Position numbers and translations under genes: made by a program | Part shown: piece by piece, positions 3,426-22,675 of the stretch | Numbering within the stretch: position 1 is the stretch's first letter | How the letters are laid out: each line of letters opens with the position of its first letter | Source: a virus | Taxonomy: Duplodnaviria; Caudoviricetes | Direction: 5' to 3' (one strand) | IMG/VR virus record: IMGVR_UViG_3300032332_001787 | Location: 32,001 to 96,000 of that record | DNA length: 64,000 nt | Notes under the pieces: generated by a model | Database searches by the model: none | The model's input: only the letters and a program-made list of their open reading frames with translations | What the model was told of the DNA's origin: nothing

Positions 3426-3507
3426 CCTAACTCTATATAGGGTAATAACTTAGGGTGAGTATGAGACGCCCGGCTTGACGTAAGTACCTGCTATATATAG
3501 ACTTACG
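3426..3507. repeat. 82-bp bipartite palindromic repeat R1
   Basis: CCTAACTCTAT-ATAGGGT-AATAACTTAGG / 24 bp / CGTAAGTACCT-GCTATAT-ATAGACTTACG. Confidence 0.8.
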
Positions 3508-3568
3508 ACAAATTCTAAAAAATATTTTGTTTGGCATGAAATTATATTTAAAAATCCAAAGATTTCTC

Positions 3569-3596
3569 TTGAAAGCGTCGATAAATACTGTATAAT
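3569..3596 (+). promoter_or_regulatory. sigma70-type promoter after R1
   Basis: TTGAAA-16-(TG)TATAAT with CGATA in the spacer. Confidence 0.7.
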
Positions 3597-3627
3597 AGGA
3601 TCAACACAAGAGAAAAGGAAAAGAATC

Positions 3628-3777
3628 ATGGAAAACGTCGTTACCGTCTACTTCACTTCTGACTGCTGCGGTTGCAACATGACTTTCGCTCAGACCGATT
3701 ACGGTATCTGCCCTAGCTGTGGAGAACACTGCGAGGTTATCGGAGAGGAAGTGATCGAAGATAATGGGGAGTATTGA
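3628..3777 (+). CDS. 49-aa Cys-rich zinc-finger protein (below the track cut-off)
   Basis: MENVVTVYFTSDCCGCNMTFAQTDYGICPSCGEHCEVIGEE...; directly downstream of a promoter and AGGA RBS. Confidence 0.6.
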   Translation: MENVVTVYFTSDCCGCNMTFAQTDYGICPSCGEHCEVIGEEVIEDNGEY

Positions 3778-3826
3778 CAAGCAGATAGCCGATAGGATAT
3801 AGTGAAATCAACACAAGGGAAAAGAA

Positions 3827-3976
3827 ATGACCATTCAAGTACAAAACACGATTCGCCGCCTAGTTGCTCGACACGGATATTCGGCTACATTTGTTCAGCA
3901 CTTGGGAGAAGGTATTCTTTTGTACAGTATCGGGGGTATCATGTATCGAATTCGTGGAGATGGTACGATTCTCTAA
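3827..3976 (+). CDS. 49-aa hypothetical protein
   Basis: MTIQVQNTIRRLVARHGYSATFVQHLGEG...; stop codon 8 bp before R2. Confidence 0.55.
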   Translation: MTIQVQNTIRRLVARHGYSATFVQHLGEGILLYSIGGIMYRIRGDGTIL

Positions 3977-3984
3977 AAGCTTGA

Positions 3985-4066
3985 CCTAAAGCCTTACCCC
4001 ATAAGCACTTAGGGCTAGGCGGACGGGCCGGGCTTGACGTAAGTACTTGCCCCATAAGACTTTACG
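3985..4066. repeat. 82-bp repeat R2
   Basis: CCTAAAGCCTT-ACCCCAT-AAGCACTTAGG / 24 / CGTAAGTACTT-GCCCCAT-AAGACTTTACG. Confidence 0.9.
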
Positions 4067-4072
4067 ACAACT

Positions 4073-4090
4073 TAGCAAATGGTATGCCAA
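4073..4090 (-). promoter_or_regulatory. sigma54 (-24/-12)-like site
   Basis: Minus strand TTGGCATACCATTTGCTA: GG-N10-GC spacing with TGGCA and TTGC. Confidence 0.55.
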
Positions 4091-4153
4091 TATGTAGAAA
4101 AATGATGAAAAGTTTTGTCAAATTCTCTTGACAATAAAATTTGCAAATTTCTC

Positions 4154-4182
4154 TTGCAATCTCAAGTATGGGATGGTATAAT
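4154..4182 (+). promoter_or_regulatory. sigma70-type promoter after R2
   Basis: TTGCAA-17-TATAAT then GTCGATATAAG. Confidence 0.75.
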
Positions 4183-4221
4183 GTCGATATAAGAAGTAAG
4201 AGAGAAAGAGAGAAAGAGAAA

Positions 4222-4440
4222 ATGAGAAAGCCTCCAAAAAGTTCGACTGTCAAGGGTAAAATCAACGCCTATGCCTACAAGTGTGGGTTTACGTTTCACC
4301 CGAAAGAGGATGGTTCGTTTGCCCTGTTCGACATTCACATGGGATACTACGTCTGCCGTGGTTCCCATGATCGTGTTGTCCAGTTCGTGATTGATGAACT
4401 GTGGGCAAAGTATTATCGGTCACAGCCGACCCCCGTATGA
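4222..4440 (+). CDS. hypothetical protein
   Basis: ATG after a purine-rich leader downstream of the R2 promoter. Confidence 0.6.
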   Translation: MRKPPKSSTVKGKINAYAYKCGFTFHPKEDGSFALFDIHMGYYVCRGSHDRVVQFVIDELWAKYYRSQPTPV

Positions 4441-4739
4441 GGGGGTTGATTAGACATTCGTTTTAGGCTAAAATACAAACACAAGAAAGAGAGACTCTAA
4501 TGCTGACGATGATTGATTATATTCAACTGTTTGCTCTGATTGCTGGTTGTGCTTTCATCACCTATACTGTGCATGAAGTGGGTAACGCTATCCATTCTAT
4601 GCTACATGAAAACGACTGAGGAGAATATGTCTAGGTATCTGCCCGATGGGTATGTAGATTATGCTACATACAATATTAAAGAGATTTTACAGTTTCTTCA
4701 ACAATTATTAGGGATGATCAGCGAAAGCTGGTAAACAAA

Positions 4740-5057
4740 ATGACACATTTTGAAGCAGTGAAGATGGTTCGTGGTAAGACTAATAAGAATACTCGCAAGG
4801 TTGGTAATAATACCTATGCGGAAATTCTTCCCGATGGTAGCGTAGGGATCATGCTGCATAGTACCTATGTGGTAAAGATTCATCCCGATAATAGTGCTAC
4901 CCTTAATAGTGGGGGTTGGCGTACTAGTACCACTAAGGATAGAATTAACCAGTATTCGCCCGTGCGTGTATATCAACGCAAGGGAGAATGGTATCTGGAA
5001 AGTGGTTTAGAGTATGAAGATGGTATGGTTGTGGCTGATATGAATCTTATCTACTAA
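4740..5057 (+). CDS. hypothetical phage protein
   Basis: 105-aa ORF; stop codon 1 bp before R3. Confidence 0.7.
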   Translation: MTHFEAVKMVRGKTNKNTRKVGNNTYAEILPDGSVGIMLHSTYVVKIHPDNSATLNSGGWRTSTTKDRINQYSPVRVYQRKGEWYLESGLEYEDGMVVADMNLIY

Positions 5058-5058
5058 A

Positions 5059-5140
5059 CGTAAGTCCTTGACCCTAAAGCACTTAGGGCAAGGCGGGCCG
5101 GCCCCGCTCGACGTAAGTGCTTATACAGTAAGGGTTTGCG
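5059..5140. repeat. 82-bp repeat R3
   Basis: CGTAAGTCCTT-GACCCTA-AAGCACTTAGG / 24 / CGTAAGTGCTT-ATACAGT-AAGGGTTTGCG. Confidence 0.9.
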
Positions 5141-5151
5141 ACGAATACCTA

Positions 5152-5169
5152 TAGCAAATGCTGTGCCAA
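5152..5169 (-). promoter_or_regulatory. sigma54 (-24/-12)-like site
   Basis: Minus strand TTGGCACAGCATTTGCTA, close to the TGGCAC-N5-TTGC consensus. Confidence 0.6.
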
Positions 5170-5203
5170 TGCAACCTTACGACATTGTAAGGAAACTTTT
5201 CTC

Positions 5204-5232
5204 TTGCAAGCTCAAGATGGGCATGGTATAAT
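5204..5232 (+). promoter_or_regulatory. sigma70-type promoter after R3
   Basis: TTGCAA-17-TATAAT then GTCGATATAAG. Confidence 0.75.
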
Positions 5233-5728
5233 GTCGATATAAGGATAAGGGAGAAAAGAGATGAAGAACAAGATCAATGTGGGTGATGTGGTCGAAATGT
5301 CGTGTGGGTATGGTACGGTTCAGCAGATCATCGGGAAAAACTATCGGATTCTGCTCTCTGGCCAGTATGGGTATGGTGAGTGGTATACCCTGAGTGATAT
5401 GATATCCCACGCTACCCTGTACCCCAAATGAGGGGTTGACAAAAGATAAAAAATTGTCTAGAATAACAACACAAGAAAGAGAGAAAAGAATGTACGAAAT
5501 TGGTGATAGTGTGGTACTCAAAGGATTTGAGAAAAGGATCGTGGGAAAGATTGTTTCCTATCATTACGATGAGGGTAATGTGTGGGTCGTGCGAACTGAA
5601 GGCGGAAATCTTTGGGATTGTTGCGACAACGAATTGGATATCCTTACGGTATTGTAAGGTTGACACAGTAAAATCCGTTTGGTATAATGCACACACAAGA
5701 GAACGATAGACCTAAGAGAGAAAAGAAA

Positions 5729-6103
5729 ATGAAAACCAAGTATCCAATCATCGAAAATGCCAAGCGTCAAGCCCGTATGATCTTCAAGGGTATCGCAGTG
5801 CCGATGCTCGTGGAAATTCCCGATGATCGAATCACGGAAGATACCGATTACGTCTACGGCGTGACCGACCATAAGCGTTATGTTGTGAGCGAGAAGGTAA
5901 TCAAGTTCAATCGTACCGCACTGAAGAACATTGGCAAGGTTCGCAAGGAAAAAGCCGATCCCCGCTATGTGGGGGGTGAGGATACTATGATCGTTGCGGT
6001 TGGCAAGCCGGGAAGTCGTGAGCGTGTTGAGGAACTGACCAAGCAATACGGTGCGGTTGCTCATCTGGAAATCAGCCCGTTCAGCTTCAAGGGTGATGAA
6101 TAA
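5729..6103 (+). CDS. hypothetical protein
   Basis: ORF downstream of promoter 5660-5688. Confidence 0.65.
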   Translation: MKTKYPIIENAKRQARMIFKGIAVPMLVEIPDDRITEDTDYVYGVTDHKRYVVSEKVIKFNRTALKNIGKVRKEKADPRYVGGEDTMIVAVGKPGSRERVEELTKQYGAVAHLEISPFSFKGDE

Positions 6104-6136
6104 ACGATCACTACTGCACAAAAGCATAGCAGTTGA

Positions 6137-6218
6137 CCTAAAGCGTTACCCTGTAAGTACTTAGGGCGAACGCGGCCCGCCCCGCGAAGCGTAAGTACTT
6201 GTGAGATAACGACTTATG
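6137..6218. repeat. 82-bp repeat R4
   Basis: CCTAAAGCGTT-ACCCTGT-AAGTACTTAGG / 24 / CGTAAGTACTT-GTGAGAT-AACGACTTATG. Confidence 0.9.
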
Positions 6219-6262
6219 ACAACCTTACGATATTGCAAGGAAACTTTTCCTACTCTACCCTA

Positions 6263-6291
6263 TTGACAAATGACGATAATACTTGTATAAT
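6263..6291 (+). promoter_or_regulatory. sigma70-type promoter after R4
   Basis: TTGACA-17-TATAAT. Confidence 0.85.
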
Positions 6292-6319
6292 GGTGACAGA
6301 AAGAAAGAGAGAGTTGAAG

Positions 6320-6823
6320 ATGGAAAAGGTTACGAGTGTGAATGGTTTTATTGGTTCGCTTCCCAGGATTCGGAGGCGTAGGATTTGGAGTGTGACGATT
6401 GACGGAAAGGTTGTTCAAGGCGTGAGTGCCGATGACAACCGAAAGGAAACTGCTGAAGCGTATATTGCTAGCAAGTACCCCGGTCAAGCTTTCACTCTCA
6501 AGTTTGTTGAGTGGAGAATCTGAACCTTACGGTATTGTAAGGTGTTGCAGGCTAAAGGTTGATGTGGTAGAATGTCGATAATAGGTATAGAGAAGATGAC
6601 CAGTAACCAAGAGGAAAAGATGAGTAACATTGTGTTGCCCCAGCGGTATGATTGGGTGGAGTTTGACTATAAGGGTGAGAACTTCCGTGGTGAGGTTCGT
6701 AGGGTTGAAGATAAGCCCAAGGGTAAGTTGATGATTGTGAAGATTGGACATACTGAGTATCGGTCGTGCTACCTTGACCAGTGTGAGAATCTGACCACCA
6801 CCCCTGCTGAAACGGAGGCTTGA
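6320..6823 (+). CDS. two small hypothetical proteins (6320-6523, 6620-6823), each with its own promoter
   Basis: ORFs following promoters 6263-6291 and 6545-6573. Confidence 0.6.
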
Positions 6824-7181
6824 GCATGAGAATGATCGAATATCCTTTTGTGTGGGTTATGGGGGCTTTCCTTAAAGTGATGGAAACTCTCTGTGAAGTT
6901 TGGCAGAGGATCAACGAATATGAGAATATGAAGTCTAGGGGTTATACTCTTATGAAAAGTGATAAGGGTGATGATTTCTGGGTAGGTTATGGGGATTGAC
7001 CACTTAAACAAAATGGAGATACAGGGATGTATCAATTTGATTTTATTAGTGTCGCTTTCGGCTATGTTTGTGGTATTATTCTGTATGCTAGTATGTCAAA
7101 TATCATGTATATGGAGGAAAGTGATGAAAGTGAGTGACTACATATTGTGGGGGGTGTGTTTTGTTATTGGCTGCACTATGA

Positions 7182-7263
7182 CGTATCTCCTTCATCTGTA
7201 AGGACTTACGTCAAGTTCGGCCCGCCCCGCGAAGCGTAAGTGCTTATGCTGCAACACTTTACG
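7182..7263. repeat. 82-bp repeat R5
   Basis: CGTATCTCCTT-CATCTGT-AAGGACTTACG / 24 / CGTAAGTGCTT-ATGCTGC-AACACTTTACG. Confidence 0.9.
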
Positions 7264-7306
7264 ACAACCTTACAGCATTATAAGGAAACTTTTCTGTTGA
7301 AAGGTA

Positions 7307-7335
7307 TTGACAGTTGACGATAATAGATGTATAAT
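7307..7335 (+). promoter_or_regulatory. sigma70-type promoter after R5
   Basis: TTGACA-17-TATAAT. Confidence 0.85.
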
Positions 7336-7368
7336 CCTAGCATCTTAACCCCAACTGAGGAATGTCTA

Positions 7369-7548
7369 ATGTCGAATACTTTCTACTGTCTGGAATGTGA
7401 TGCTGACTGTGGGTCTTTTGAGCATTGCTGTGCTTGCGAGGACAATCCCGCGATGGAGAATCGTGAGCATCCCGGTTTCATCTCAAGTGCAGAGATTGAG
7501 AGTGAAATTCAGACTGAAAATTTCTGGTATGAATACGATCAGCGTTGA
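7369..7548 (+). CDS. acidic CxxC zinc-binding small protein
   Basis: FYCLECDADCGSFEHCCACE. Confidence 0.6.
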   Translation: MSNTFYCLECDADCGSFEHCCACEDNPAMENREHPGFISSAEIESEIQTENFWYEYDQR

Positions 7549-7607
7549 CAGAGTTGATTAGACTTGGTAGAATAAGCCCATAACCCTTACCTTTGGAGAG
7601 TTTATCT

Positions 7608-7805
7608 ATGAACGAAGATTCCTTTCTCGACTCCTACATGGAATCCTATATCGGTGGTTGGACAGGCGATGAGGATGCCTATTACGCCGAAGATGAGGCG
7701 GAGGATGGGTATCTCAAAGAACCTGAAGATTACGATATCTGGGATGATGAGGACGATGGTGGAGATGGGTTCATGACCTGTCCAGAGGACATCGGAGACT
7801 ATTGA
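7608..7805 (+). CDS. highly acidic small protein
   Basis: D/E/Y/G-rich with a single Lys; stop codon abuts R6. Confidence 0.65.
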   Translation: MNEDSFLDSYMESYIGGWTGDEDAYYAEDEAEDGYLKEPEDYDIWDDEDDGGDGFMTCPEDIGDY

Positions 7806-7887
7806 CGTAACCCCCGGCCCTATAAGGACTTAGGGCAAACCGGGGCGGCCCCGCGTAGCGTAAGTCTTTATCCGTCAAGAGTTTACA
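7806..7887. repeat. 82-bp repeat R6
   Basis: CGTAACCCCCG-GCCCTAT-AAGGACTTAGG / 24 / CGTAAGTCTTT-ATCCGTC-AAGAGTTTACA. Confidence 0.9.
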
Positions 7888-7995
7888 ACAACCTTACGAA
7901 ATTGCAAGGAAAAACTTTTATGGTAGGGCTTGCAATGGGTCGATAATAAGTGTAGAATACCAACATCACGAACGGAAACCACAGGAACCAGAATC

Positions 7996-8169
7996 ATGCT
8001 GAACTTTGACGAGATCAACGATATTCTGAACGATATGGCTGAAGCCGGTATTCTTGAGCCGATGGTCGAGCCGATTGACGATCCTAGTGTGGAAGTCAAC
8101 TTTTGGGATTGGGCAGATGTGGTGGGTGCTGTTGACGAATTCGTTCCCGAGGAGTATACTCATGCTTAG
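7996..8169 (+). CDS. acidic small protein
   Basis: MLNFDEINDILNDMAEAGILEPMVEP... Confidence 0.6.
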   Translation: MLNFDEINDILNDMAEAGILEPMVEPIDDPSVEVNFWDWADVVGAVDEFVPEEYTHA

Positions 8170-8229
8170 TGCGATTGCTTTCGTTGTGGGCTATATTGGC
8201 TTGTTTTACATTACTACCATCGTGAGGGA

Positions 8230-8511
8230 TTGACCATGAGCTACGAATATGACGATCTTGAAGATTTTTATGGTATCGACGCTGATGATCGTACTAATGA
8301 TTATTGGGCTGGAAATGATGACCTGGAGAATGATTCTGATGATTCATTTGATGATAGTATGGATGGTGATGCTGAATCTGCGTTGGCTTCCGCTGGATGG
8401 GGAACCGACGAAGACTATGGTTACTATGGTGACGATGGAGTAGAAGATTTCCACGCCGATGAGGCTATCGGATTCGTTGATTACAACGACGATGGCCCAT
8501 ACGATGACTGA
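8230..8511 (+). CDS. extremely acidic protein (about one third D/E)
   Basis: 1 Arg and no Lys in 93 aa. Confidence 0.7.
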   Translation: MTMSYEYDDLEDFYGIDADDRTNDYWAGNDDLENDSDDSFDDSMDGDAESALASAGWGTDEDYGYYGDDGVEDFHADEAIGFVDYNDDGPYDD

Positions 8512-8520
8512 ATTACTCGC

Positions 8521-8602
8521 CGTAAACCCTTTGTGCCTAAGCACTTAGGGTTGGCGGGGCGGGCCGGATTTGTCGTAAGTCTTTATCCTGCAACACTTTG
8601 CG
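8521..8602. repeat. 82-bp repeat R7
   Basis: CGTAAACCCTT-TGTGCCT-AAGCACTTAGG / 24 / CGTAAGTCTTT-ATCCTGC-AACACTTTGCG. Confidence 0.9.
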
Positions 8603-8699
8603 AGAACCTTACGAAATTGTAAGAAAACTTTCTAGTTGACAACTAAAGTTTCATGTGCTAAAATGTCGATATAAGAGATAGAGAAAGAGAGAGTGAAGA

Positions 8700-10280
8700 A
8701 TGAGTTGGAATGGGTATCAGATGAGTAGGGATATGTGGGGTAACATGAAGCATGAGCATATCCATGTTGGTTGGACTGTGACGTTTGATATGGATGGTAA
8801 GCGTTACTCGTGGAATCTTAATGCAAAGTATAGAACTAAGATTGACGTTGAACGTAGGGTTTTTGAGAAGTATCCTACTGCTACTAATGTTCGTTGCAAC
8901 AAGAATATTTGTGAAGTTTGAAGGGAATAAAATGAGACAGTTAACCAAAAACGAAATAGCCGATCTAGAATTTGACGCTGAACTTATGGGCTTTCGGGTA
9001 GTGTATCTTCCCAAACCTCTTGACTGGAATCATTTTGTGTTGTATTATCTCAAGCCAGAATTGACTTATGTTGGTCACTATCGTGGTTTGAATGAGGTCA
9101 AGCTAGGTATGCAGAAGCACTACAAGCCGGAGTATAGTGAAAAATGAACGATCTACATTATGAATTTTTGTTGAAAGCGATGTATCAAAAACCTAAAAAG
9201 AAAAAGGTTCAACACGGGTCTGCTGGTCGTAACTACTACGGTGAGTTGAAAAGATTTAAAGGCTATCGTGGCCCATTAAAGAAAGATGAAGAGCAGAAAT
9301 GACTAATGAAGAAAAATGGATTGAATATCGTAAGTCTGTAGGCTTGACTGAAAAGTCTCCAGAAATTGAAGCTGGTTGGAATAAGGAATATAATTGTTCT
9401 AACCGAGTTGGTCGATTAATTTACATGAACGATTCTGATACTTACGGAGACTGAAATGAAAACGAAAAAGAAGGTATTGACAGCACACGAAAAAGCTGTT
9501 ATACTCATGAATCGTGAAGCTGGTCGTGCAGTGAATCGTGTGAAGATGTTGGAACGGTTGTATCTTGAAACTATGAAAGCAAAGGAACTTGTTAAATGAA
9601 GTGCGTTGTTACCCATACCGATACTTATGGTGGTGAAGCTAACTATGGTTGGGTGAATCGTTATGAATTCATCCCCAAGAAGAATGCTAGCCAGCGTAGC
9701 GTTATTCGTAAGGCTAAGGCTCTGGCCGGTATGACAGCAGTCAAGGCTGAGACCTATGACTATGGCGACGGCTATACCGTTAAGCCTCGCGGCTATGCTC
9801 AGATCATCTTTGTTGATTTTGAGTAAACTCTCCCTCGTCGTAAACCCTTTGTGTTCAAGCACTTAGGGCCGACGGGGCGGGCCGGGCTTGCTGTAAGTCC
9901 TTATCTACCAACACTTTACGAGAATCCTTACAATCTATTAAGATTCAAGTTACCCCCTTGCAATAGACGATAATAGATAGTAGAATACGATATAGAAGAA
10001 AGGCAAGGGTGAAGACATGAGTCCTGACGGAAGCTATAACGGTTATGTAAACTACCAGACATGGAATGTTTGCTTGTGGATTAGTAATGATGAAAATCTG
10101 TATAGTCTGGCAAAACAGTGTGGTTCTTACGAACATTTCAGGATTTTGATTCGTGAGATTTTTACCACAGCCCCTATCCGATTCGAAACGCCCGATTGTG
10201 TGGCTTGGAATGATAGTGGTATCAACATGGCCGAAATGGTAGAGTATTGGGAAGAAAATTTTTCTAAAGTTTGTGCTTGA
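8700..10280 (+). CDS. small hypothetical proteins 8700-8921, 8931-9147, 9596-9826, 10017-10280
   Basis: Codirectional ORFs inside cassettes R7-R9. Confidence 0.6.
9839..9920. repeat. 82-bp repeat R8
   Basis: CGTAAACCCTT-TGTGTTC-AAGCACTTAGG / 24 / TGTAAGTCCTT-ATCTACC-AACACTTTACG. Confidence 0.9.
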
Positions 10281-10350
10281 CAAATGACGATATATAGTGT
10301 AGACTTGGCGTATGGATGTTGTGATCGATTTTCAATTTGAAAGGGTTTCT

Positions 10351-10755
10351 ATGAACGATGTGATTTTGTTTGGTTCGATTCTGTCGGCTGTTGCCGCTGC
10401 TGTTGTGGGCTTTGTCTTCTATTCCGTTTACGGTGGAAGTAAGGCCAGTTTGGCGAATGCTCAAGAGGGTCAGGTTTTCAACTTTGTCTACGAACAGCCA
10501 TTGCATGGAACGCATGAGCGTTTTCTTGCCAAGGTGATCGGAAAGCAGACGCTGACTGCTGACCAGATTAAGAGACTGAATCGTAAGAGTCGGTATCGTA
10601 TCAATGATCCTGAGTTTGTGCGTACTACCAATCTGGTAACGTGTCGAACTGCGGATGGTAAGGTGCGTAATTTCTATGCAGAACGAGTAACCAAGTGCCG
10701 AAAGCCGTTGCTGGCCGGTGCTTTGTTCAAGAGCGGGTTTGCTAACCTGTTCTAA
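10351..10755 (+). CDS. membrane-anchored protein with WYL-like domain
   Basis: N-terminal hydrophobic helix; VFNFVYEQ...ERF...LVTCRTADGKVRNFYAERV resembles the WYL pattern. Confidence 0.4.
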   Translation: MNDVILFGSILSAVAAAVVGFVFYSVYGGSKASLANAQEGQVFNFVYEQPLHGTHERFLAKVIGKQTLTADQIKRLNRKSRYRINDPEFVRTTNLVTCRTADGKVRNFYAERVTKCRKPLLAGALFKSGFANLF

Positions 10756-10789
10756 AAACTAGCAGTCTCTGCCTACTAACTGACCAACC

Positions 10790-10871
10790 CCTAACCCTTT
10801 GACACCAAAGGACTTAGGGCGAGGTCGGCCGGCCCGCTTCGTCGTAAGTCTTTACGTATCAACGCTTTACG
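10790..10871. repeat. 82-bp repeat R9
   Basis: CCTAACCCTTT-GACACCA-AAGGACTTAGG / 24 / CGTAAGTCTTT-ACGTATC-AACGCTTTACG. Confidence 0.9.
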
Positions 10872-10899
10872 ACAATCTTTTTTGTTCAAGTTTTTCCTC

Positions 10900-10928
10900 T
10901 TGACAGGCCGATAATAGTAGTGTAGAAT
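10900..10928 (+). promoter_or_regulatory. sigma70-type promoter after R9; equivalent promoters at 7930-7958, 8636-8664, 9958-9986, 13617-13645, 14868-14896, 16277-16304, 20073-20101, 21490-21518
   Basis: TTGACA-17-TAGAAT; the others are TTGACA/TTGCAA/TTGACT-16/17-TAGAAT/TAAAAT/TAAGAT/TATACT/TATGAT. Confidence 0.8.
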
Positions 10929-15029: not shown

Positions 15030-15287
15030 ATGAAGAAGTTTAGTTTTGTGGTTGATGTTGTGGCTGATGAGCTTGATCGTGATTCGGTTGTGGATTCGAT
15101 TCGTGACTGTCTGAGCGGTAGCCTTCCTGGCGATGTTCATGCGAATGTCAAGGCCGGTGAGGTCAAGGCTTTCAGCGAGCAGGGTTATAAGGTGTGGCGA
15201 GCGAGGGTTACGGGTGTGACAGCCGAGCAGGCTGGCGATGCCCATGATGGTAAGGTAGAAAAGGAAACTGCCGAAGCGGTTGCATGA
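15030..15287 (+). CDS. hypothetical protein
   Basis: First gene after the R12 promoter. Confidence 0.6.
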   Translation: MKKFSFVVDVVADELDRDSVVDSIRDCLSGSLPGDVHANVKAGEVKAFSEQGYKVWRARVTGVTAEQAGDAHDGKVEKETAEAVA

Positions 15288-15358
15288 TCGACCGCAGGGA
15301 GTTATAATGGCTGCGAGCCTCCACGGGACGCCGTGGGGGCTTGCGGTATTGACGAGAC

Positions 15359-15432
15359 GACTCCGTAGCTCAATTGGATAGAGCGAGCGGCTTCTATCCG
15401 CTAGGTTGGGGGTTCGAGTCCCTCCGGGGTTA
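15359..15432 (+). tRNA. tRNA-Arg(TCT)
   Basis: Cloverleaf; AGCGG-CTTCTAT-CCGCT; TTCGAGT loop. Confidence 0.9.
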
Positions 15433-15437
15433 TTGTT

Positions 15438-15512
15438 GGGGGTGTAGCTTAATCAGGTTAGAGCGTCGGCTTGTCAAGCCGAAGGTTGCGGGTTCAAGTC
15501 CCGCCACTCTCG
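15438..15512 (+). tRNA. tRNA-Asp(GTC)
   Basis: TCGGC-TTGTCAA-GCCGA; TTCAAGT loop. Confidence 0.92.
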
Positions 15513-15528
15513 TTTATTATCTGAGTCG

Positions 15529-16116
15529 CTATTGATAGAAATGTTCTTCTCTGTGACAATTACTGCATAAGATAATACATTTATCTATTTCAGTCTTAAT
15601 ATCTTCTAGAGAAGCATTTTTATCTCTGAGCATAGCACCTATTCCATCTGTCTTATTGTTTTCTGTATGATGGAAATCTAAACATTCTGGTGACGACAAT
15701 CCGCATTTATGACATGAAGATTTTTGCTTTAGTTCTAATACATACCTAGCTTTTTTAGTAAGATATTTATATGTATTAGTATGTTCTTTTCTATGGCAGT
15801 TAGAGCAAATAACGTCGCATTTATTTATTTCTGCTAAAACTATTTCGGTTGAATATCCATGACGAATAAGATTGCATACTGTATCTTTTTTTGTATCTGG
15901 ATTTCTATGGTGAAAATCTAGACAATAGAATCTAGTCTCTCCACAGATTTTGCATGGGTTATTTTCTTTGAGGTTTTGAACTAGAGTTCTGTTATGATCT
16001 TTAGTTTTGTTCTTATATCTCTGTTTATATACTCTAACTCTGTCAATATTTTTATTAGCCCATTTAGTATTATTGGTTATTTTAGCTTTGCTTGTTTTAT
16101 TCTTTTTCATGGGCAT
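15529..16116 (-). CDS. HNH endonuclease with two tandem HNH modules
   Basis: Twice CxxC...LDFHH...KCxxxCSNCHRxEH. Confidence 0.85.
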   Translation of the reverse strand: MPMKKNKTSKAKITNNTKWANKNIDRVRVYKQRYKNKTKDHNRTLVQNLKENNPCKICGETRFYCLDFHHRNPDTKKDTVCNLIRHGYSTEIVLAEINKCDVICSNCHRKEHTNTYKYLTKKARYVLELKQKSSCHKCGLSSPECLDFHHTENNKTDGIGAMLRDKNASLEDIKTEIDKCIILCSNCHREEHFYQ

Positions 16117-16165
16117 CTCCTGTATAAATTAATACACCAAATCTTAGCAATACGAGGGGATTTGT

Positions 16166-16247
16166 CGTAAGCCTATACCATCAAAGAACTTAGGAGAAAT
16201 GCGGCGAGCCGGGTTTGACGTAAGTCGTTCTCGCATAAGGACTTAGA
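16166..16247. repeat. 82-bp repeat R13
   Basis: CGTAAGCCTAT-ACCATCA-AAGAACTTAGG / 24 / CGTAAGTCGTT-CTCGCAT-AAGGACTTAGA. Confidence 0.9.
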
Positions 16248-16327
16248 GCAAAATATTTTTCACTAAAGAATATCTCTTGACTTAGCCGATTATTAGGTTA
16301 TACTTGATAGACACGAAAGGGAAAAGT

Positions 16328-17032
16328 ATGAAATACGCTATTGGTAATGACAAGTTGGGTAAGAATTGCTTGGTCGTGAGTCGTCCGGTTGGCGATACTT
16401 GCCCGCCCGATTGCGACTATCTTGGGAATGGATGCTATGCCGAAGCTACTGAAAATCAGTATAAAAATGCTCGCACTGCTGGATTCTCCAATATCATTAC
16501 GGAAAAGAATAAAATCCGTGCGATGATTCTGGAAGCAAAGCGTACCCAAAAAAGTATTCGCTGGCAAGAACGTGGCGATTGGTTTCTTAATGGACAACTT
16601 GACCTAGAATATGTTGCAAACGTAACATGGGCTTGTGAGAGTATTCTGGCCGATGGCGATACTTTGCCCGATATGTGGTTTTATACTCATATCTACGATT
16701 CTCGGCTTGTGAGTCTGGAAAAGTATATGAATGTGTACGCTAGTGTGCATGACGATAATGATATGGGTGAAGCACTATCGCAAGGTTTCAAGCTGTTCGC
16801 ATGGTGTGATAGCGATATGAAAATTGCACCCAAGCGACCCAAGAGCAAAGCAAAAGCCGAAGCATGGCGAAAAGCACTGCCGAAGCTGGTGGTTCTCAAT
16901 GCTACAAAGTTTGTGGTATGTCCAGAAATCCGTCGTGGTCGGTCAGAAATCACTTGCACCGGCACTAAAGATAGTATATCATGTGACTTGTGTGTTCGTG
17001 GTTTGGCTAATGTCTTGTTTCCAGCCCATTGA
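16328..17032 (+). CDS. Gp88-like Cys-rich (putative Fe-S) phage protein
   Basis: TCPPDCDYLGNGCYA...IRWQERGDWF...CPE...CTG...CDLC. Confidence 0.5.
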   Translation: MKYAIGNDKLGKNCLVVSRPVGDTCPPDCDYLGNGCYAEATENQYKNARTAGFSNIITEKNKIRAMILEAKRTQKSIRWQERGDWFLNGQLDLEYVANVTWACESILADGDTLPDMWFYTHIYDSRLVSLEKYMNVYASVHDDNDMGEALSQGFKLFAWCDSDMKIAPKRPKSKAKAEAWRKALPKLVVLNATKFVVCPEIRRGRSEITCTGTKDSISCDLCVRGLANVLFPAH

Positions 17033-17043
17033 AAGGAATAAAA

Positions 17044-17613
17044 ATGAGCTACGTTGGATTGTATGATGATGCAGGAAGTAAAAATGCTTTCTATATTATC
17101 AAAGACAAAAAGATTGACCGTAAACGTGTGGGCTTCAAAGAGTTTGAGAGTGAGAAAGAGGCTAAGTTTGCCCATCGGGTTCAAAAGCATCTGGCACAGT
17201 TTGATTTGGCCCCTATGGTATATGGGGATGTTGGTTTTATTCGTAGGAATGATGGACAATTTACCTACTATGGTTATTTGACCGAAGTTGCTCGACCTAT
17301 GCCAACGTGCCATGATGATGATTGTGATGGCGAATGTTTTCAGAGTGAATGTAGTAATGGCACTACTATCAGTGAAGTAGTTTATGATTTGGGTGAACAT
17401 GGACTAGAATATAACGATGTCCACAAGGGTAATTTTGGTTATGTTCGACGCAAAGGATCATGGGTTCCGGTTGCTATCGACCTTGGGGTTGAGAGTTTTA
17501 CTGATTGGGATGAAGATATTTATGGGAAGTTTGATTATGATGCCGATGAAGATGTTGACAGCTATGGTGCGTGTAATTGTGCTCACTGCAAACAATTTAG
17601 AGACAGGGGATAA
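17044..17613 (+). CDS. protein-kinase-like fold protein
   Basis: GFKEF...LAPMVYG...LTEVA...NDVHKGNFG...VAIDLG (catalytic DxHxxN and DFG-like motifs). Confidence 0.65.
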   Translation: MSYVGLYDDAGSKNAFYIIKDKKIDRKRVGFKEFESEKEAKFAHRVQKHLAQFDLAPMVYGDVGFIRRNDGQFTYYGYLTEVARPMPTCHDDDCDGECFQSECSNGTTISEVVYDLGEHGLEYNDVHKGNFGYVRRKGSWVPVAIDLGVESFTDWDEDIYGKFDYDADEDVDSYGACNCAHCKQFRDRG

Positions 17614-18017
17614 TCATGGCAAAGTATTATATCAAATGTGGAACACTAGAACTAATTTACTCTTGCAATAAATGTCCAAGGGATGCTGCAATGGATGCTA
17701 TATGGGAAACGAATGAAAATGATACACTAGATGAACACTTCTATATAGATGAGCGTGGGTATAGAGACTATGTTACTGCTGATGGACATACTTGTGTATT
17801 AAATACTGGTCATATTCTCATAGACGCAGGATGGAGTATTGAATAATGTGGACAAAAATAGACGATAAAAAAGTAAGACACTTATGGGAATGTGCTGATT
17901 GTGATAATCTAGTTTATGTAGAGCCTTGGTTTTATTCAGAAAACGGCGAACCTTTTTGTACAACGTGCGAGAAGGATATGGAGTATATTCGAACAGAAGT
18001 AGATATGTAGCCTTTTC

Positions 18018-18099
18018 CGCAAACCCTTACTGCATAAGCACTTAGGGCGAGCGGGGGCGGCCGAATTTGACGTAAGTCCTTAGCCCGCAACACTTTAGA
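18018..18099. repeat. 82-bp repeat R14
   Basis: CGCAAACCCTT-ACTGCAT-AAGCACTTAGG / 24 / CGTAAGTCCTT-AGCCCGC-AACACTTTAGA. Confidence 0.9.
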
Positions 18100-18153
18100 G
18101 CAAATTCAAAAATCTTCTAAAGTTTCCCTACTGGATTAGTCGATAATATTGGT

Positions 18154-18549
18154 ATGGAAACGAAGCAAGAAACCAAAAGGAATGGACAGATGATCCAGTG
18201 GGTAGGGATTCTGATTACTCTGGTGGGTTTGGCCTATACGGGAATCAAAGATTATCAAAAAGGTGATATAAAATTCCCTCCCATGCCTCAGAAACCGGCC
18301 TTGACAAAGGTAGTTTATCCGGTACAATACTGTCTGATGGCTTACGATCCTAATGTTGACAAAGTTTTTTATCTACACGAAAACGGACAATGGCATGATT
18401 ACGCTCCACAACAACGACGATATGAGACCACGCCGCAACCATATCAAACTCAAGGTGCGACCGCAGTGGCAGGTTCCTACGGGTCACAAGGAACACCGAC
18501 ATACCGTTATGGACAATCGCCCCAAGCGTCAACGAACCCGATCCGCTGA
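18154..18549 (+). CDS. membrane-anchored protein with Q/P/T-rich tail
   Basis: WVGILITLVGLAY transmembrane segment. Confidence 0.6.
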   Translation: METKQETKRNGQMIQWVGILITLVGLAYTGIKDYQKGDIKFPPMPQKPALTKVVYPVQYCLMAYDPNVDKVFYLHENGQWHDYAPQQRRYETTPQPYQTQGATAVAGSYGSQGTPTYRYGQSPQASTNPIR

Positions 18550-18599
18550 AAACCGCAGGGCTTGCGAGAACGGAGACTATTGACTATAATAGTAGGATT

Positions 18600-18672
18600 G
18601 CCGATGTAACTCAGTTGGTAGAGTAGCAGTTTTGTAAACTGCCTGTCATCAGTTCGATTCTGATCATCGGCT
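18600..18672 (+). tRNA. tRNA-Thr(TGT)
   Basis: GCAGT-TTTGTAA-ACTGC; GCCGATG/CATCGGC acceptor. Confidence 0.92.
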
Positions 18673-18673
18673 C

Positions 18674-18939
18674 TCGGGAATGGTGTAACGGTAGCACAAG
18701 TGACTTTAATAAACTGGAGTGCGTCAAGAGAAATTTTGATGTAGAACCTCTCAAATTCGGGGAACGCTTAACTGCCAATCCCGAGCCAAGCCGGAAACGG
18801 AAGGTGTAACGACTTGACGGGAGGCACCTAAAACTTTTAGTCATGGTGATGGTAAAGTCTAGACTACAAACCGTAAGGGTAGCGAAAGCTATAGTAGTAA
18901 GTGGATCACTTTGTCTAGGTTCAAATCCTAGTTCCCGAA
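18674..18939 (+). tRNA. tRNA-Gln(TTG) interrupted by a group I intron
   Basis: TCGGGAA/TTCCCGA acceptor; spliced loop AGTGA-CTT|TGGA-TCACT. Confidence 0.85.
18707..18901 (+). ncRNA. group I intron (IC3-like, 195 nt) after U34 of tRNA-Gln
   Basis: P/Q/R/S-like CTCAAATTCGGGG, AATCCCGAGCC, GTAACGACTTGAC, AAAGTCTAGAC; ends in G and follows an exon U. Confidence 0.85.
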
Positions 18940-19631
18940 TTTAGTTTTTGCCAATAGCCTCTGCGATTAGTTAATTGGATTCCATATGCTTTAGCCCATT
19001 TACGAACAGAGTTATCTGTTACGTTATATTTTTTAGCTATAATACTCATAGGTATAGTAGCAATTAATTTTTCTAATTCCTCTTTAGATGGTCTTTCTAC
19101 TTTTCTGAGCCATGGTTTAGAAGTTTGTTTGATTTTAATCGGTTTTATCTTTTTGAATCTTTTACCAGCATAGGTATCTGTTTGGCTATGACAATTAGGA
19201 CACAAAAAACATAAATTAGATAATCTATTATCATTAGGAATTCCATTTTTGTGTTCTAGTTGCAAAGATATTTTTTTATTATTCCAGACATCTTTTAATC
19301 CGCATGACTCACACTGATATGGTATTAATTTATTTTGTATAATTCTTTTTTTTATACCACCCCTATTTGTTGTTCCGTTCTCGCAAAAAAATTGATCATC
19401 AGTTTTCTTTGGTGAAAATCTTTTACCTTTATTAGAGCCTCTACCAAGCGAAATGTGAGACATATCTATATTCTCATCTTTAGCTCGTCTTTTTACAGTA
19501 TGGTGGTTTCCTCCTTTATTATTTAAACCAAAATGACGTAGTATATCTGCTATTGTGTTTGATCTACAAACTAGAGTTTGGAATTCTTCTGTAGAAATTG
19601 ACCATATAATACTTCTTTTTTTTCTATTCAT
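18921..19631 (-). CDS. HNH homing endonuclease with N- and C-terminal HTH-like segments
   Basis: CESCG...LQLEHKNGIPNDNRLSNLCFLCPNCHSQT. Confidence 0.9.
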   Translation of the reverse strand: MNRKKRSIIWSISTEEFQTLVCRSNTIADILRHFGLNNKGGNHHTVKRRAKDENIDMSHISLGRGSNKGKRFSPKKTDDQFFCENGTTNRGGIKKRIIQNKLIPYQCESCGLKDVWNNKKISLQLEHKNGIPNDNRLSNLCFLCPNCHSQTDTYAGKRFKKIKPIKIKQTSKPWLRKVERPSKEELEKLIATIPMSIIAKKYNVTDNSVRKWAKAYGIQLTNRRGYWQKLNSGTRI

Positions 19632-19720
19632 GTTTAACTCCTTATTGGTACCATATATTATACACCATTCTGGTGTCTTGACAAGTTGCTTTATTCTGTT
19701 ATAATAGCATAAATCGACGG

Positions 19721-19792
19721 TGTCCGATAGCTCAACGGTAGAGTAGGCGGCTGTTAACCGCTTGGTTCTAGGTTCGAATCCTAGTCGGACAG
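19721..19792 (+). tRNA. tRNA-Asn(GTT)
   Basis: GGCGG-CTGTTAA-CCGCT; TGTCCGA/TCGGACA acceptor. Confidence 0.92.
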
Positions 19793-19797
19793 CTTAG

Positions 19798-19887
19798 GGA
19801 AGAGTGGCAGAGTGGTCATAATGCACTGGTTTACTAAACCAGCGATCTCTTAACCGGGGTCCGTGGGTTCGAATCCCACCTCTTCCG
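19798..19887 (+). tRNA. tRNA-Ser(ACT)
   Basis: CTGGT-TTACTAA-ACCAG, long variable arm, G73, GGAAGAG/CTCTTCC acceptor. Confidence 0.88.
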
Positions 19888-19890
19888 TTT

Positions 19891-19973
19891 GGTAGATTAC
19901 TCAAGTGGACAACGAGGGCAGACTGTAAATCTGCTGGCTATCGCCTTCGGGAGTTCGAATCTCTCATCTACCA
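19891..19973 (+). tRNA. tRNA-Tyr(GTA)
   Basis: GCAGA-CTGTAAA-TCTGC; variable arm; A73. Confidence 0.92.
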
Positions 19974-20054
19974 CTAAGTTGTTGATATGAAAGAACTTAG
20001 GACAAATCCGGCGGACCGGGTTCGACGTAAGTCCTTGCAACATAACGACTTAGG
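19973..20054. repeat. 82-bp repeat R15
   Basis: ACTAAGTTGTT-GATATGA-AAGAACTTAGG / 24 / CGTAAGTCCTT-GCAACAT-AACGACTTAGG. Confidence 0.9.
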
Positions 20055-20136
20055 ATTTTCTAAAGTTTGTTCTTGACAACTGCCGATAACTAGTGTATGA
20101 TTGCTAATCGGAGGCTGGCGACTGAGTTACGAGAGT

Positions 20137-20208
20137 GGCCCTATAGTCTAACGGCTAGGACGACAGCCTTTCACGCTGTAGATTGGAGTTCGATTCTCCA
20201 TAGGGTCA
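20137..20208 (+). tRNA. tRNA-Glu(TTC)
   Basis: ACAGC-CTTTCAC-GCTGT. Confidence 0.9.
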
Positions 20209-20512
20209 TTTGTTTCTGCTAATCCTACGGATTTGGTGGTCTTGGCGATAGTCAGCACGAATCCTAAAGTTTTGGCTCTTGACAGACCGATATTGGTATG
20301 GTAGACTATTGGAACAAGAAAGGAAAATGATGAAGAACCTTCGCATCTATGATATTCTGACTGAGGATGGTAAAACTCTGGCCGAAATTACTCTGTCTAT
20401 GCAAGAGGATTTTGATTGGGCTGATGTTTTCGACAAGCTGTATGATATGACTACAGAAAATGTAGAGAGTTATTCTTATGAGGAAATTGCCGTAAACGCC
20501 GAATAAGCTGAT

Positions 20513-20586
20513 GCGCCTCTAACTCAATTGGTCAGAGTAGCGGTCTTTTAAACCGTAAGTTCCGGGTTCGAGTCCCGGGGGGCGCA
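20513..20586 (+). tRNA. tRNA-Lys(TTT)
   Basis: GCGGT-CTTTTAA-ACCGT. Confidence 0.92.
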
Positions 20587-20639
20587 CTTGACAGTGACGA
20601 TTGTTGGTGTAGAATAGAGGTAAGAAAGGGAGTAAAAAT

Positions 20640-20813
20640 ATGAGATATGAAGATCATTATGACGGATACGATTATGACTATGATGAATTGGTAGAAAATA
20701 CCGAGGATCTTGGTCTGGACGAAGAACCTTGGATGCAAGATGCAGAAGAGGATGATGAAGTTCCGTCCTATGGTAAGAATTATTATCCTAGTATTGAAGA
20801 TGAAGATGACTGA
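20640..20813 (+). CDS. 57-aa highly acidic protein
   Basis: MRYEDHYDGYDYDYDELVENTEDLGLDEEPWMQDAEEDDE...; downstream of a promoter near 20588. Confidence 0.6.
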   Translation: MRYEDHYDGYDYDYDELVENTEDLGLDEEPWMQDAEEDDEVPSYGKNYYPSIEDEDD

Positions 20814-20818
20814 TCTTT

Positions 20819-20901
20819 GTGTGTGCTTCTAGGTGGGACTAGACCCTAATATATTTATCCTTTCTTGTAACGGGATGTTGGTTCAAATCCAACCACACAC
20901 T
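20819..20901 (+). ncRNA. tRNA-like element lacking a canonical anticodon arm
   Basis: GTGTGTG/CACACAC acceptor, TCTA/TAGA D arm, GTTGG-TTCAAAT-CCAAC T arm. Confidence 0.6.
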
Positions 20902-20903
20902 TT

Positions 20904-21407
20904 ATGAACGCTTTCCAGCAAGAGCTTGATGACTTTCGGCGTACCCCAGATGGTAAAATCATTCAAGGGGCTGCTCATACTAGCAGAGTATTAAATCACA
21001 AATATCGAAATGATGTGATTATCAAGGCTGTTTGTTCTCTGCGTAAGATTGAGAATGATTTTGACAGTATTGCTTGTTGTGGTGTGAGTGGTTTGATGGT
21101 AGTACCACAGATTGCGGAGATTCTCAATAAGAATATTATAGTTATTCGTAAGGATGAGCGGCGATATAGTGAATTCTTTATCGAAGGTGTTACTCCATCT
21201 AATTATGTTATTGTAGATGATTTAATTTGTTCTGGTAATACGGTTAAACGTATAACAAATAATATTCGTGCTGATGTTCCACGAGCAAAATGTATCGGTG
21301 CATATTTCTACATGGGTGAGGAGTGTGCCTATAATGCTTCCAATTCTAAACTTTTTGAGAAGCAGTTTGGGACGATCATCCTAAACCCTTACCGGCCAAA
21401 GACTTAG
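20904..21407 (+). CDS. type I phosphoribosyltransferase
   Basis: YVIVDDLICSGNT PRPP-binding loop. Confidence 0.85.
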   Translation: MNAFQQELDDFRRTPDGKIIQGAAHTSRVLNHKYRNDVIIKAVCSLRKIENDFDSIACCGVSGLMVVPQIAEILNKNIIVIRKDERRYSEFFIEGVTPSNYVIVDDLICSGNTVKRITNNIRADVPRAKCIGAYFYMGEECAYNASNSKLFEKQFGTIILNPYRPKT

Positions 21408-21461
21408 GACAAGGTGGGGCGGCCCCGGTCGCCGTAAGTCCTTATCTGTCAACCACTTACG
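21380..21461. repeat. 82-bp repeat R16
   Basis: CCTAAACCCTT-ACCGGCC-AAAGACTTAGG / 24 / CGTAAGTCCTT-ATCTGTC-AACCACTTACG. Confidence 0.9.
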
Positions 21462-21561
21462 ACCTGCGTAATTTTTCCAAAGTTTTCGCTTGACAGTGAC
21501 GATAACATAGTGTAGAATCAGTGAAGTAGAACGATTGAACAGAAACACGAAAGGGATGATT

Positions 21562-22515
21562 ATGGCTCATGCAGTTGAACAGATGATGTTTGTTGGTGCG
21601 ACCCCGTGGCACGGTCTGGGTAACCAGTTGGACGAGGCTCCCACAATTTCGGAGGCGATTACGGCCGCTGGTCTGGATTGGGAAGTGGGTCTGAAAGACC
21701 TGTTCACTCAAGAGGGCAGACCAGTTCCCGCCCGTGCTACCTATCGTAAGACCGACGACCATTCCATTCTCGGAGTTGTCGGCCCGCGATACACCCCGCT
21801 GCAAAACAGCGAGGCGTTCGATTGGTTCCAGCCGTTTCTGGATGCTGGTGAGTGCAATCTGCACACTGCCGGTTCTCTCCACAGCGGTGCGAAGGTTTGG
21901 GTTCTTGCCCAACTGAACCGCGACAATAGTGAGATCGTCAAGGGTGATGATGTTTGCAAGTTTATCCTGCTGTCCAACAGCCATGATGGTACGACCGCGA
22001 TTCGTGTCGGATATACTCCGATCCGCGTTGTGTGTGCGAACACGATGGCTATGGCTCACAGCAAGGGTAGTGGTTCCAAGCTGATTCGGATTCGTCATAC
22101 CCGTTCCAGCAAGAACAATCTGGAACAGGTTCGGGATATCATGGACAATATCAACGCAGAGTTTGAGGCGACTGCGGAGCAGTTCCGATTCCTCGCGTCG
22201 AAGAACTTCAACCAGAATGATGTTCGTCGATATGTTAAGGTGATGCTCGGCATCGAAGGTACTGCGGATGCGGATATTAAGACTCGCACCCGTAATATCA
22301 TGGATGAGATTCTCACCTTGGTGGAAGGCCCGAAGCAGAGTGCGACGGGGGTTCGCGGAACTTGGTGGGCCGCGTACAACGGCTACAACGAGTACCTGAA
22401 TTACAACAAGGGTCGCACGACCGATAATCGGCTCGATTCTCTCTGGTTCGGTCAGAACGCAAACGACAACGTGAAAGCGTTGGAGAAAGCTATGGAGTTC
22501 GCTCAGGCACTCTAA
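21562..22515 (+). CDS. DUF932/DUF945-family phage/plasmid protein
   Basis: TPWHGLG...GLDWEV...VVGPRYTPLQN...LLSNSHDGT...IRVVCANT...RIRHT. Confidence 0.85.
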   Translation: MAHAVEQMMFVGATPWHGLGNQLDEAPTISEAITAAGLDWEVGLKDLFTQEGRPVPARATYRKTDDHSILGVVGPRYTPLQNSEAFDWFQPFLDAGECNLHTAGSLHSGAKVWVLAQLNRDNSEIVKGDDVCKFILLSNSHDGTTAIRVGYTPIRVVCANTMAMAHSKGSGSKLIRIRHTRSSKNNLEQVRDIMDNINAEFEATAEQFRFLASKNFNQNDVRRYVKVMLGIEGTADADIKTRTRNIMDEILTLVEGPKQSATGVRGTWWAAYNGYNEYLNYNKGRTTDNRLDSLWFGQNANDNVKALEKAMEFAQAL

Positions 22516-22540
22516 TCCCTCGCAATGAGGGTTGACACGG

Positions 22541-22576
22541 GAGCCGCCACTCAGCAATGGGTGGCGGTTCTTTTTT
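22541..22576 (+). terminator. intrinsic terminator
   Basis: GAGCCGCCAC-loop-GTGGCGGTTC followed by TTTTTT. Confidence 0.85.
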
Positions 22577-22593
22577 GTGCCTAGGGCATTTCG

Positions 22594-22675
22594 TATAAAC
22601 CCTTATCAGCAAAGGACTTAGGGCGAGCGGGGCCGCGAAATCTTGTCCTAAGTTCAATGACACCAAGCACTTGCG
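22594..22675. repeat. 82-bp repeat R17
   Basis: TATAAACCCTT-ATCAGCA-AAGGACTTAGG / 24 / CCTAAGTTCAA-TGACACC-AAGCACTTGCG. Confidence 0.85.

Follow-up and report, generated by a model that had tools for sequence, protein, structure and literature searches.

A bipartite, helically phased palindromic element upstream of early promoters in an uncultured freshwater jumbo phage

Promoter-early stem-loops (PeSLs) are known from the T4-like phages RB49/phi1, T4/PST and KVP40/nt-1; general recombination has been proposed to act on them, and mini-circles arising from exchange between PeSLs have been observed (PMC2839356, PMC4122927). Here we describe a related arrangement, an 82-bp element that occurs in 17 copies between positions 3426 and 22675 of a stretch of 64,000 nt (the window), which comprises bases 32001-96000 of an IMG/VR virus record. 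The record is a jumbo phage, uncultured and of freshwater origin, with a genome of 230,097 bp that is rated 100% complete by CheckV. PeSLs and the present element both combine a repeated intergenic palindrome with an AT-rich tract and a strong sigma70 promoter, and both precede small, non-essential early genes in a hyperplastic region. In both cases relatives differ by insertion, deletion, replacement and displacement of cassettes, with exchange points inside the repeated unit, and no dedicated recombinase is known for either. The differences lie in the unit itself. In place of a short hairpin made of a G-run and a C-run, it has here two 29-bp palindromes at an invariant spacing, which form a rigid 82-bp pair, and it bears no signs of selection for base pairing and no U tract. 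The distance to the promoter is helically quantised, and the palindrome also has a solitary form, which overlies the -35 box in another class of promoter. Moreover, the phage carrying it is not a close relative of T4 (by tblastn, its RIIA protein is at most 37% identical to that of any cultured phage).

An earlier note on this DNA, made from the sequence alone (the original prediction), had likened the element to PeSLs, and the analogy is apt with respect to unit structure, hyperplastic setting and exchange points within the unit. What is new relative to PeSLs is the architecture, which is rigid and bipartite, has a DNA-level signature and follows a phasing rule; literature searches found no printed description of such an element. 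With modest confidence, we read it as a phased pair of operators within a unit of element, linker and promoter, which also serves as a patch of homology for cassette exchange.

The anatomy is extremely regular. Exactly 17 copies of 82 bp align without gaps as 11-7-11 / 24 / 11-7-11, with no insertions or deletions, and the 11-7-11 geometry is present in all 34 half-elements. All copies lie within 3426-22675 and on the plus strand. A profile search of the whole genome returns these 17 sites only, with the plus orientation scoring highest at each, and the consensus pattern matches the sequence 23 times, versus no matches in 100 shuffles. The 29-24-29 geometry and the single orientation put forward in the original prediction are thereby borne out, and its counts for the inner arms (ACTTAGG in 15 of 17 copies and CGTAAGT also in 15), for the spacing of copies (559-1955 bp, given as 0.56-1.96 kb) and for the variation of the 7-bp cores between copies are all correct. 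Each element consists of two 29-bp palindromes whose centres are 53 bp apart, and which stand in direct rather than inverted order. There are four conserved boxes, with centres at element positions 4, 26, 57 and 79, so that the steps between them are 22, 31 and 22 bp, or about two, three and two helical turns.

The same structure extends to related phages. The inner-arm pattern matches more than 116 IMG/VR loci, in which a profile search finds 416 copies, and the spacing of the inner arms is identical in 294 of the 299 relatives' copies that bear both inner motifs. Five complete relatives (200-238 kb) contain 14-18 copies each, in one cluster of 17-20 kb. The bipartite, phased element is therefore widespread in a clade of uncultured freshwater jumbo phages. 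Outside of phages it is nearly absent: a 21-base version of the pattern, run against 185,579 bacterial and archaeal genomes, matches only seven contigs of 1.2-21 kb, all from freshwater metagenome-assembled genomes, and these look like mis-binned phage. The search of candidate host genomes that the original prediction had proposed gave nothing beyond these seven short contigs, and because of this the element is not a host repeat; the idea of a REP sequence of the host was dropped on the same scan.

The scan also bears on whether the element might be a miniature repeat of the selfish kind (MITE, REP or BIME-like), one that multiplied across the early region and has no function for the phage. 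Such repeats resemble it in some respects, since the unit of 82-90 bp is quasi-palindromic with terminal inverted repeats and has many intergenic copies, and since REP/BIME and REPIN sequences likewise sit at the 3' ends of genes as paired imperfect palindromes joined by fixed linkers. We nevertheless regard this origin as extremely unlikely. The copies are limited to a single 19-kb block in every genome examined, their orientation is fixed, their distance to one class of promoter is phased, and their arms are more conserved than the neighbouring coding sequence. Furthermore, the present repeats are specific to a phage clade, have their two palindromes in direct instead of inverted order, and are accompanied by neither a RAYT nor any other transposase.

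Sixteen of the 17 copies are followed, 18-87 bp downstream, by a sigma70-like promoter in which at least 9 of the 12 hexamer positions match, while the remaining one, at 18018, has only a decayed version. The promoter coupling noted in the original prediction thus holds, with a count of 16 copies in place of 15. These promoters are of one class: their hexamers are TTGACA-17-TATAAT-like (9-12 of 12 matches), the -35 box is preceded by a TTCTC-like stretch, and the spacer contains a CGATAAT-like motif. A/T tracts occur in the linker of 16 of the 17 elements. With d as the distance in bp from the end of the element to the -35 box, the array begins with copy 1 (3426-3507; -35 box 3569-3574, -10 box 3591-3596; d = 61), which stands before the first early promoter and is not preceded by any early gene, and copy 2 (3985-4066; promoter 4154-4182; d = 87). 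Copy 3 (5059-5140; promoter 5204-5232; d = 63) is the left parent of chimeric elements in the relatives' loci L071 and L078. It is followed by copies 4 (6137-6218; promoter 6263-6291; d = 44), 5 (7182-7263; promoter 7307-7335; d = 43), 6 (7806-7887; promoter 7930-7958; d = 42), 7 (8521-8602; promoter 8636-8664; d = 33) and 8 (9839-9920; promoter 9958-9986; d = 37). Next come copies 9 (10790-10871; promoter 10900-10928; d = 28), 10 (11859-11940; promoter 11980-12008; d = 39), 11 (13507-13588; promoter 13617-13645; d = 28), 12 (14747-14828; promoter 14868-14896; d = 39) and 13 (16166-16247; promoter 16277-16304; d = 29). Copy 14 (18018-18099) is the one with the decayed promoter module. Copy 15 (19973-20054; promoter 20073-20101; d = 18) abuts a tRNA-Tyr gene and is followed by copy 16 (21380-21461; promoter 21490-21518; d = 28). 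Copy 17 (22594-22675) is the most degenerate, with a weak promoter (TTCCCA at 22709-22714 and TATACT at 22732-22737; d = 33).

When the phage and its relatives are taken together (285 elements), the distance from element to -35 box is quantised, with peaks at 18, 28-29, 39-40, 50-51 and 59-63 bp and troughs between them. The Rayleigh R is 0.55 at a period of 11 bp, and is still 0.37 (p about 2e-5, at 10.5-11 bp) after the linkers are collapsed to 79 sequence families. A separate peculiarity of the linkers is an extra 18-bp mini-palindrome of the type CCTTAC-N6-GTAAGG, which is found in six consecutive elements, copy 4 among them (at 5159-5195, 6219-6250, 7264-7295, 7888-7920, 8603-8632 and 9921-9950). 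Its arms resemble the main arms with the order reversed, and the copies that bear it have promoter distances off the main series (33-44 and 63 bp).

A position-weight scan for the 29-bp half revealed that the palindrome also occurs singly, at three plus-strand sites just past the array. In the first (22747-22799), the palindrome at 22747-22775 provides, with its right arm, the -35 box TTAGGT (22771-22776), and the -10 box is at 22794-22799. In the second (22910-22962), the palindrome at 22910-22938 lies over the -35 box TTGCGT, followed by a TG-extended -10 box TATACT (22957-22962), and in the third (24116-24168) the palindrome at 24116-24144 again lies over TTGCGT, with the -10 box TATGAT at 24163-24168. 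The geometry of all three is the same: the right arm ends in TTGCG or TTAGG and forms, together with the next T, a weak -35 box, with a good TG-extended -10 box 17 nt later. Of 197 single sites among the relatives, 21 have a -10 hexamer that begins exactly at position 48 of the palindrome, versus about 2 at any other offset.

The single and paired sites can be placed on one scale. In single sites the palindrome centre lies 33 bp from the -10 box, and in pairs the palindrome nearer the promoter has its centre 56, 66.5, 77.5, 88.5 or 99.5 bp away from it; all of these agree, to within about 1 bp, with a single series whose period is roughly 10.9 bp. A helically phased position relative to a promoter, as is expected of an operator, is thus found for the pairs and for the single palindromes. 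Judged from its placement in the sequence, the site behaves like a transcription-factor binding site, because it takes fixed helical phases upstream of strong promoters and overlaps the -35 box at weak ones. Two other assignments were considered and dropped. The halves of the paired elements are not promoters themselves, as inside the pairs the -10 hexamer is absent at the right distance, and an IHF-like core in the right arm, seen by eye in a few copies, was inconsistent.

A similar combination of sites is known from phage phi29, where inverted repeats upstream of the promoters serve as sites for protein p4, which represses the early promoters A2b and A2c and activates the late promoter A3. 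As in phi29, the present sites are dyad-symmetric, lie upstream of sigma-A or sigma70-type promoters with which they are in phase, and are of one type that is shared by strong early promoters and a promoter whose -35 box is poor. The differences are that phi29 has four sites in one control region whereas here there are 17 pairs spread over 19 kb, that no p4-like gene was recognised in this phage, and that the site sequences are dissimilar.

The positions and the palindromic nature of the elements might alternatively reflect a role in RNA, i.e., hairpins that act as transcription terminators, as cleavage sites (for RNase III, for instance) or as protection for the 3' end of the cassette mRNA, much like PeSLs. 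Several observations agree with this: the element sits right after the last stop codon of a unit and is co-oriented with transcription, and PeSL stem-loops, which often consist of poly-G followed by poly-C, have been shown to terminate (PMC2839356). The whole element also folds better than shuffled sequences (z about -2.2), as expected of any palindrome, and some copies fold as one long hairpin. We therefore compared 383-385 distinct copies from the phage and its relatives under four pairing schemes (each of the two 29-nt hairpins, an inner hairpin across the GC centre, and a hairpin of the whole element). For every scheme, Watson-Crick or G-U pairs are exactly as frequent as the product of the column frequencies predicts, and no compensatory base-pair change is found in any candidate helix among about 385 copies. 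The strongest mutual-information pairs are all between neighbouring columns, variable positions are unpaired, and departures from pairing are C-A mismatches as often as G-U.

Other properties of the elements are equally unlike those of structured RNA. The plus strand is the more stable one in 100 of 200 copies, i.e., there is no strand preference, and for the central 29 nt folding is no better than that of shuffled sequence (z = +0.15), so that the GC block is not self-complementary beyond chance. No U tract is present 3' of the elements, and an Rfam scan of the region found no family matching the element, only tRNAs and one sub-threshold group I intron. A terminator scan flagged one of the 17 elements, and weakly (8551-8567), and the 18 terminator-like sites in the region are not in excess of shuffles (mean 14.0, sd 3.7). 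A canonical intrinsic terminator, with a 15-bp GC-rich stem followed by a T run, does exist on the plus strand at 22539-22582 and ends about 12 bp before copy 17; ordinary terminators are therefore used where the phage terminates. Because covariation, strand bias, a U tract and an Rfam match are all absent, the sequence comparisons argue against selection for RNA or cruciform structure.

The pattern of conservation favours a double-stranded DNA site: identity between orthologous copies is 92-95% in the arms, 72-79% in the N7 cores and 80-86% in the centre, compared to 90% for flanking coding sequence. Together with the information profile, these identities reveal dyad symmetry with conserved arms and a free spacer, as is typical of operators. 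Operators are also preferred to an RNA element because copy 1 has no early gene upstream, and hence nothing to terminate, and because copy 17 stands just past a canonical terminator. An RNA element would, moreover, leave unexplained both the promoter phasing and the single palindromes upstream of transcription starts. On this evidence we consider the RNA alternative unlikely.

As for the paired operators, a double operator controlling the early promoters was one of the alternatives offered in the original prediction, and it is favoured by the lack of covariation, the helical phasing and the -35 overlap, with binding as its predicted part. We infer protein binding, the nature of the protein and the regulatory outcome along the following lines. 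Each element would present two 29-bp operators with dyad symmetry, recognised in double-stranded form by a putative dimeric protein that probably sits as a tetramer on the pair; this protein may be phage-encoded, delivered with the virion, or a factor of the host. The operator pair, the A/T-tract linker and the near-consensus sigma70 promoter would act as one unit, in which the linker may fix the side of the DNA helix on which the operators lie with respect to RNA polymerase. The same palindrome in single form, at the array's end, overlaps the weak -35 box of a second promoter class. The outcome may be an early-phase switch like that of phi29 p4, in which one protein represses or insulates strong early promoters from upstream and helps promoters with a weak -35 box. 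Such a switch is favoured because the pairs precede near-consensus promoters and single sites replace a poor -35 box. The 14-18 co-oriented repeats would in addition serve as homology patches, since the unit is repeated that many times in one orientation, and general recombination between them could delete, insert and reorder cassettes.

Several results weigh against this proposal. No candidate for a binding protein was recognised: among 40 early ORFs (open reading frames) there is no DNA-binding Pfam domain, and across the genome there is no HTH_3 or HU match. The conserved core early protein encoded at 13867-14400 has a predicted beta-rich fold (pLDDT 85) for which no PDB match exists at E<=0.001 (a novel fold). 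The RNA sequencing runs that were checked for the phage DNA do not contain it. The elements begin 0-35 nt past upstream stop codons, all along the direction of transcription, and are therefore also suited to a role at RNA 3' ends. The raw p-values are inflated by the non-independence of related copies, and about one third of the element-to-promoter distances are off the main series, mostly in the subfamily with the extra 18-bp linker mini-palindrome. Separately, a helix-turn-helix-looking ORF of 58 amino acids (12727-12903) was considered as a source of the binding protein and set aside, as it has no Atlas neighbours.

The proposed function as homology patches rests on comparisons among relatives, which at 70-90% nucleotide identity are mosaic. 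In a gene map of 53 early ORFs across six complete genomes, the ORFs from 13252 to 21535, which make up the right half of the array, are collinear, and the left 9 kb has presence/absence differences and real reordering; for one relative, the ORF order is 3827, 3628, 5687, 4740, 6311, 4223 ... 9596, 6820, 6989, 10017. When 392 elements are compared all-against-all, the pairs with a single shared flank number 436 and those with both flanks in common 131. The ends of BLAST blocks are within an element (+/-10 bp) for 31% of left ends and 16% of right ends, versus 9% expected (2-3.5 fold enrichment), and about half of the synteny breaks are far from any element. Contigs assembled from DNA runs of the same lakes join different cassettes at or inside elements. 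The genome comparisons thus indicate that cassette gain, loss and reordering among relatives are real, and the hyperplastic region, its variable small ORFs and the exchange points inside the repeated unit are those of a PeSL-type system.

The original prediction had also raised the possibility of site-specific recombination, in which the 11-7-11 half is a tyrosine-recombinase core site, or the pair an attC-like (59-base) element, and a dedicated enzyme moves the cassettes. The geometry is suggestive. The lengths of arms and spacer match those of core sites, in which arms of 11-13 bp flank a spacer of 6-8 bp, and two simple sites flank a central region, a layout that we take to resemble attC. 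As with attC, the site follows the ORF of the cassette and all sites point in the same direction, and the reordering among the six genomes and the enrichment of breakpoints would be expected as well. However, geometry is the only part of the analogy that stands. In attC systems an integrase is provided, whereas here the complete genome has no match to the tyrosine recombinase family Phage_integrase (PF00589, at E<=1), to Resolvase (PF00239), to Y1_Tnp (PF01797) or to the IS110 DEDD domain (PF01548). The absence of a recombinase, claimed earlier for the window, thus extends to tyrosine, serine, HUH and IS110-type enzymes throughout the genome. An ORF that had been taken for IS110-like has no Pfam or PDB match.

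The exchange points themselves are also unlike those of a dedicated enzyme. The N7 cores of non-orthologous copies have identities of 0.32-0.35, and because the cores of different copies are unrelated, strand exchange by a tyrosine recombinase would be blocked. In six three-way chimeras, the crossover maps either to the conserved arm A2 (positions 51-64) or to sequence past the element, and never to the N7 edges, so the search for breakpoints inside the N7 cores of relatives, suggested along with the original prediction, came out negative. The proportion of sequence that stays linked to the upstream gene declines gradually across the element and the next 30 nt, and, as noted above, half of the synteny breaks are remote from elements. 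In further contrast to attC, there is no evidence for a folded strand, and every cassette has its own promoter. We therefore judge site-specific recombination very unlikely. Exchange by general homologous recombination between short repeated patches, as with PeSLs, fits the data because crossovers are spread over arms and linker, the N7 cores are unrelated, and a recombinase is not encoded. Cassette shuffling, as envisaged earlier, is then accurate as an evolutionary description (gain, loss and reordering, with breaks enriched at elements) and not as a dedicated mechanism.

For the paired operators, a bolder version can be formulated, which we offer tentatively and regard as rather unlikely. 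One regulator, bound as tetramers to all 14-18 pairs, would gather the 19-kb early region into a single nucleoprotein assembly in which the early promoters are shut off or insulated, while the single-palindrome promoters are turned on, and the sites would at the same time be integrase-free connectors of cassettes. If true, the assembly would constitute a genome-scale switch from early to middle expression. Independently of this version, the element would represent a means of controlling host-takeover genes that is conserved, and unusually rigid, in a widespread clade of uncultured freshwater jumbo phages, and the 29-mer or 82-mer offers a precise bait for the regulator. The PeSL idea is extended in that a cassette-exchange unit may be a protein-binding operator pair and not a terminator hairpin, and cassette exchange appears to proceed without the need for a dedicated recombinase.

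The array is part of a genome in which giant structural genes are on the minus strand and a plus-strand block opens with about 20 kb of small ORFs. This block also holds tRNA genes, RIIA/RIIB, DNA ligase, thymidylate synthase and DNA polymerase. A megablast search against cultured phages found no close relative, and the phage DNA is detected in freshwater and lake metagenomes. The G+C content of the early array (window 3400-23000) is 40-45%, versus 31-38% for the rest of the window. At its boundary, just before the first element, is a plus-strand ORF of 379 amino acids (2196-3335) with GIY-YIG and HNH_3 domains, i.e., of the homing-endonuclease type.

A group I intron-like match (18697-18882; 44.9 bits, cut-off 50) is located just 3' of a tRNA-Thr gene and adjoins a minus-strand ORF with a weak HNH match (18921-19631). 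Lake contigs of relatives skip 18706-18902 or replace 18697-19767, variation that, going by these contigs, is as expected for a mobile insertion. A minus-strand ORF of 195 amino acids (15529-16116) has no Pfam match, and the read depth at 15669-16319 is near 0 in two other lake metagenomes, where the stretch is almost absent; it is probably a strain-specific insertion.

Beside the early region, the minus-strand ORF 619-1299 (226 amino acids) has a likeness to sigma-70 region 2 of 18-21 bits, under the Pfam cut-off, and its Atlas neighbours are viral sigma-like clusters, so that it probably encodes a phage sigma factor. A second family of intergenic repeats, CTAATCC ... GATAGTCAGCC, is present from the middle of the early array onward (11362-11416, 20208-20262, 22827-22881, 25356-25410, 26561-26607 and 27035-27081), and may represent a promoter class for the phage's own sigma factor. 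Some of the small early ORFs (7593-7805, 8230-8511 and 20640-20813) encode very acidic products (isoelectric point about 4.1) rich in Asp and Glu, in which respect they resemble DNA-mimic or host-takeover proteins. Finally, about 700 bp located 3' of the promoter of element 10 (12017-12716) contain no convincing plus-strand ORF, and parts of this region are strongly conserved in relatives (up to 95-99% identity across 160-280 bp); it may encode a structured RNA.

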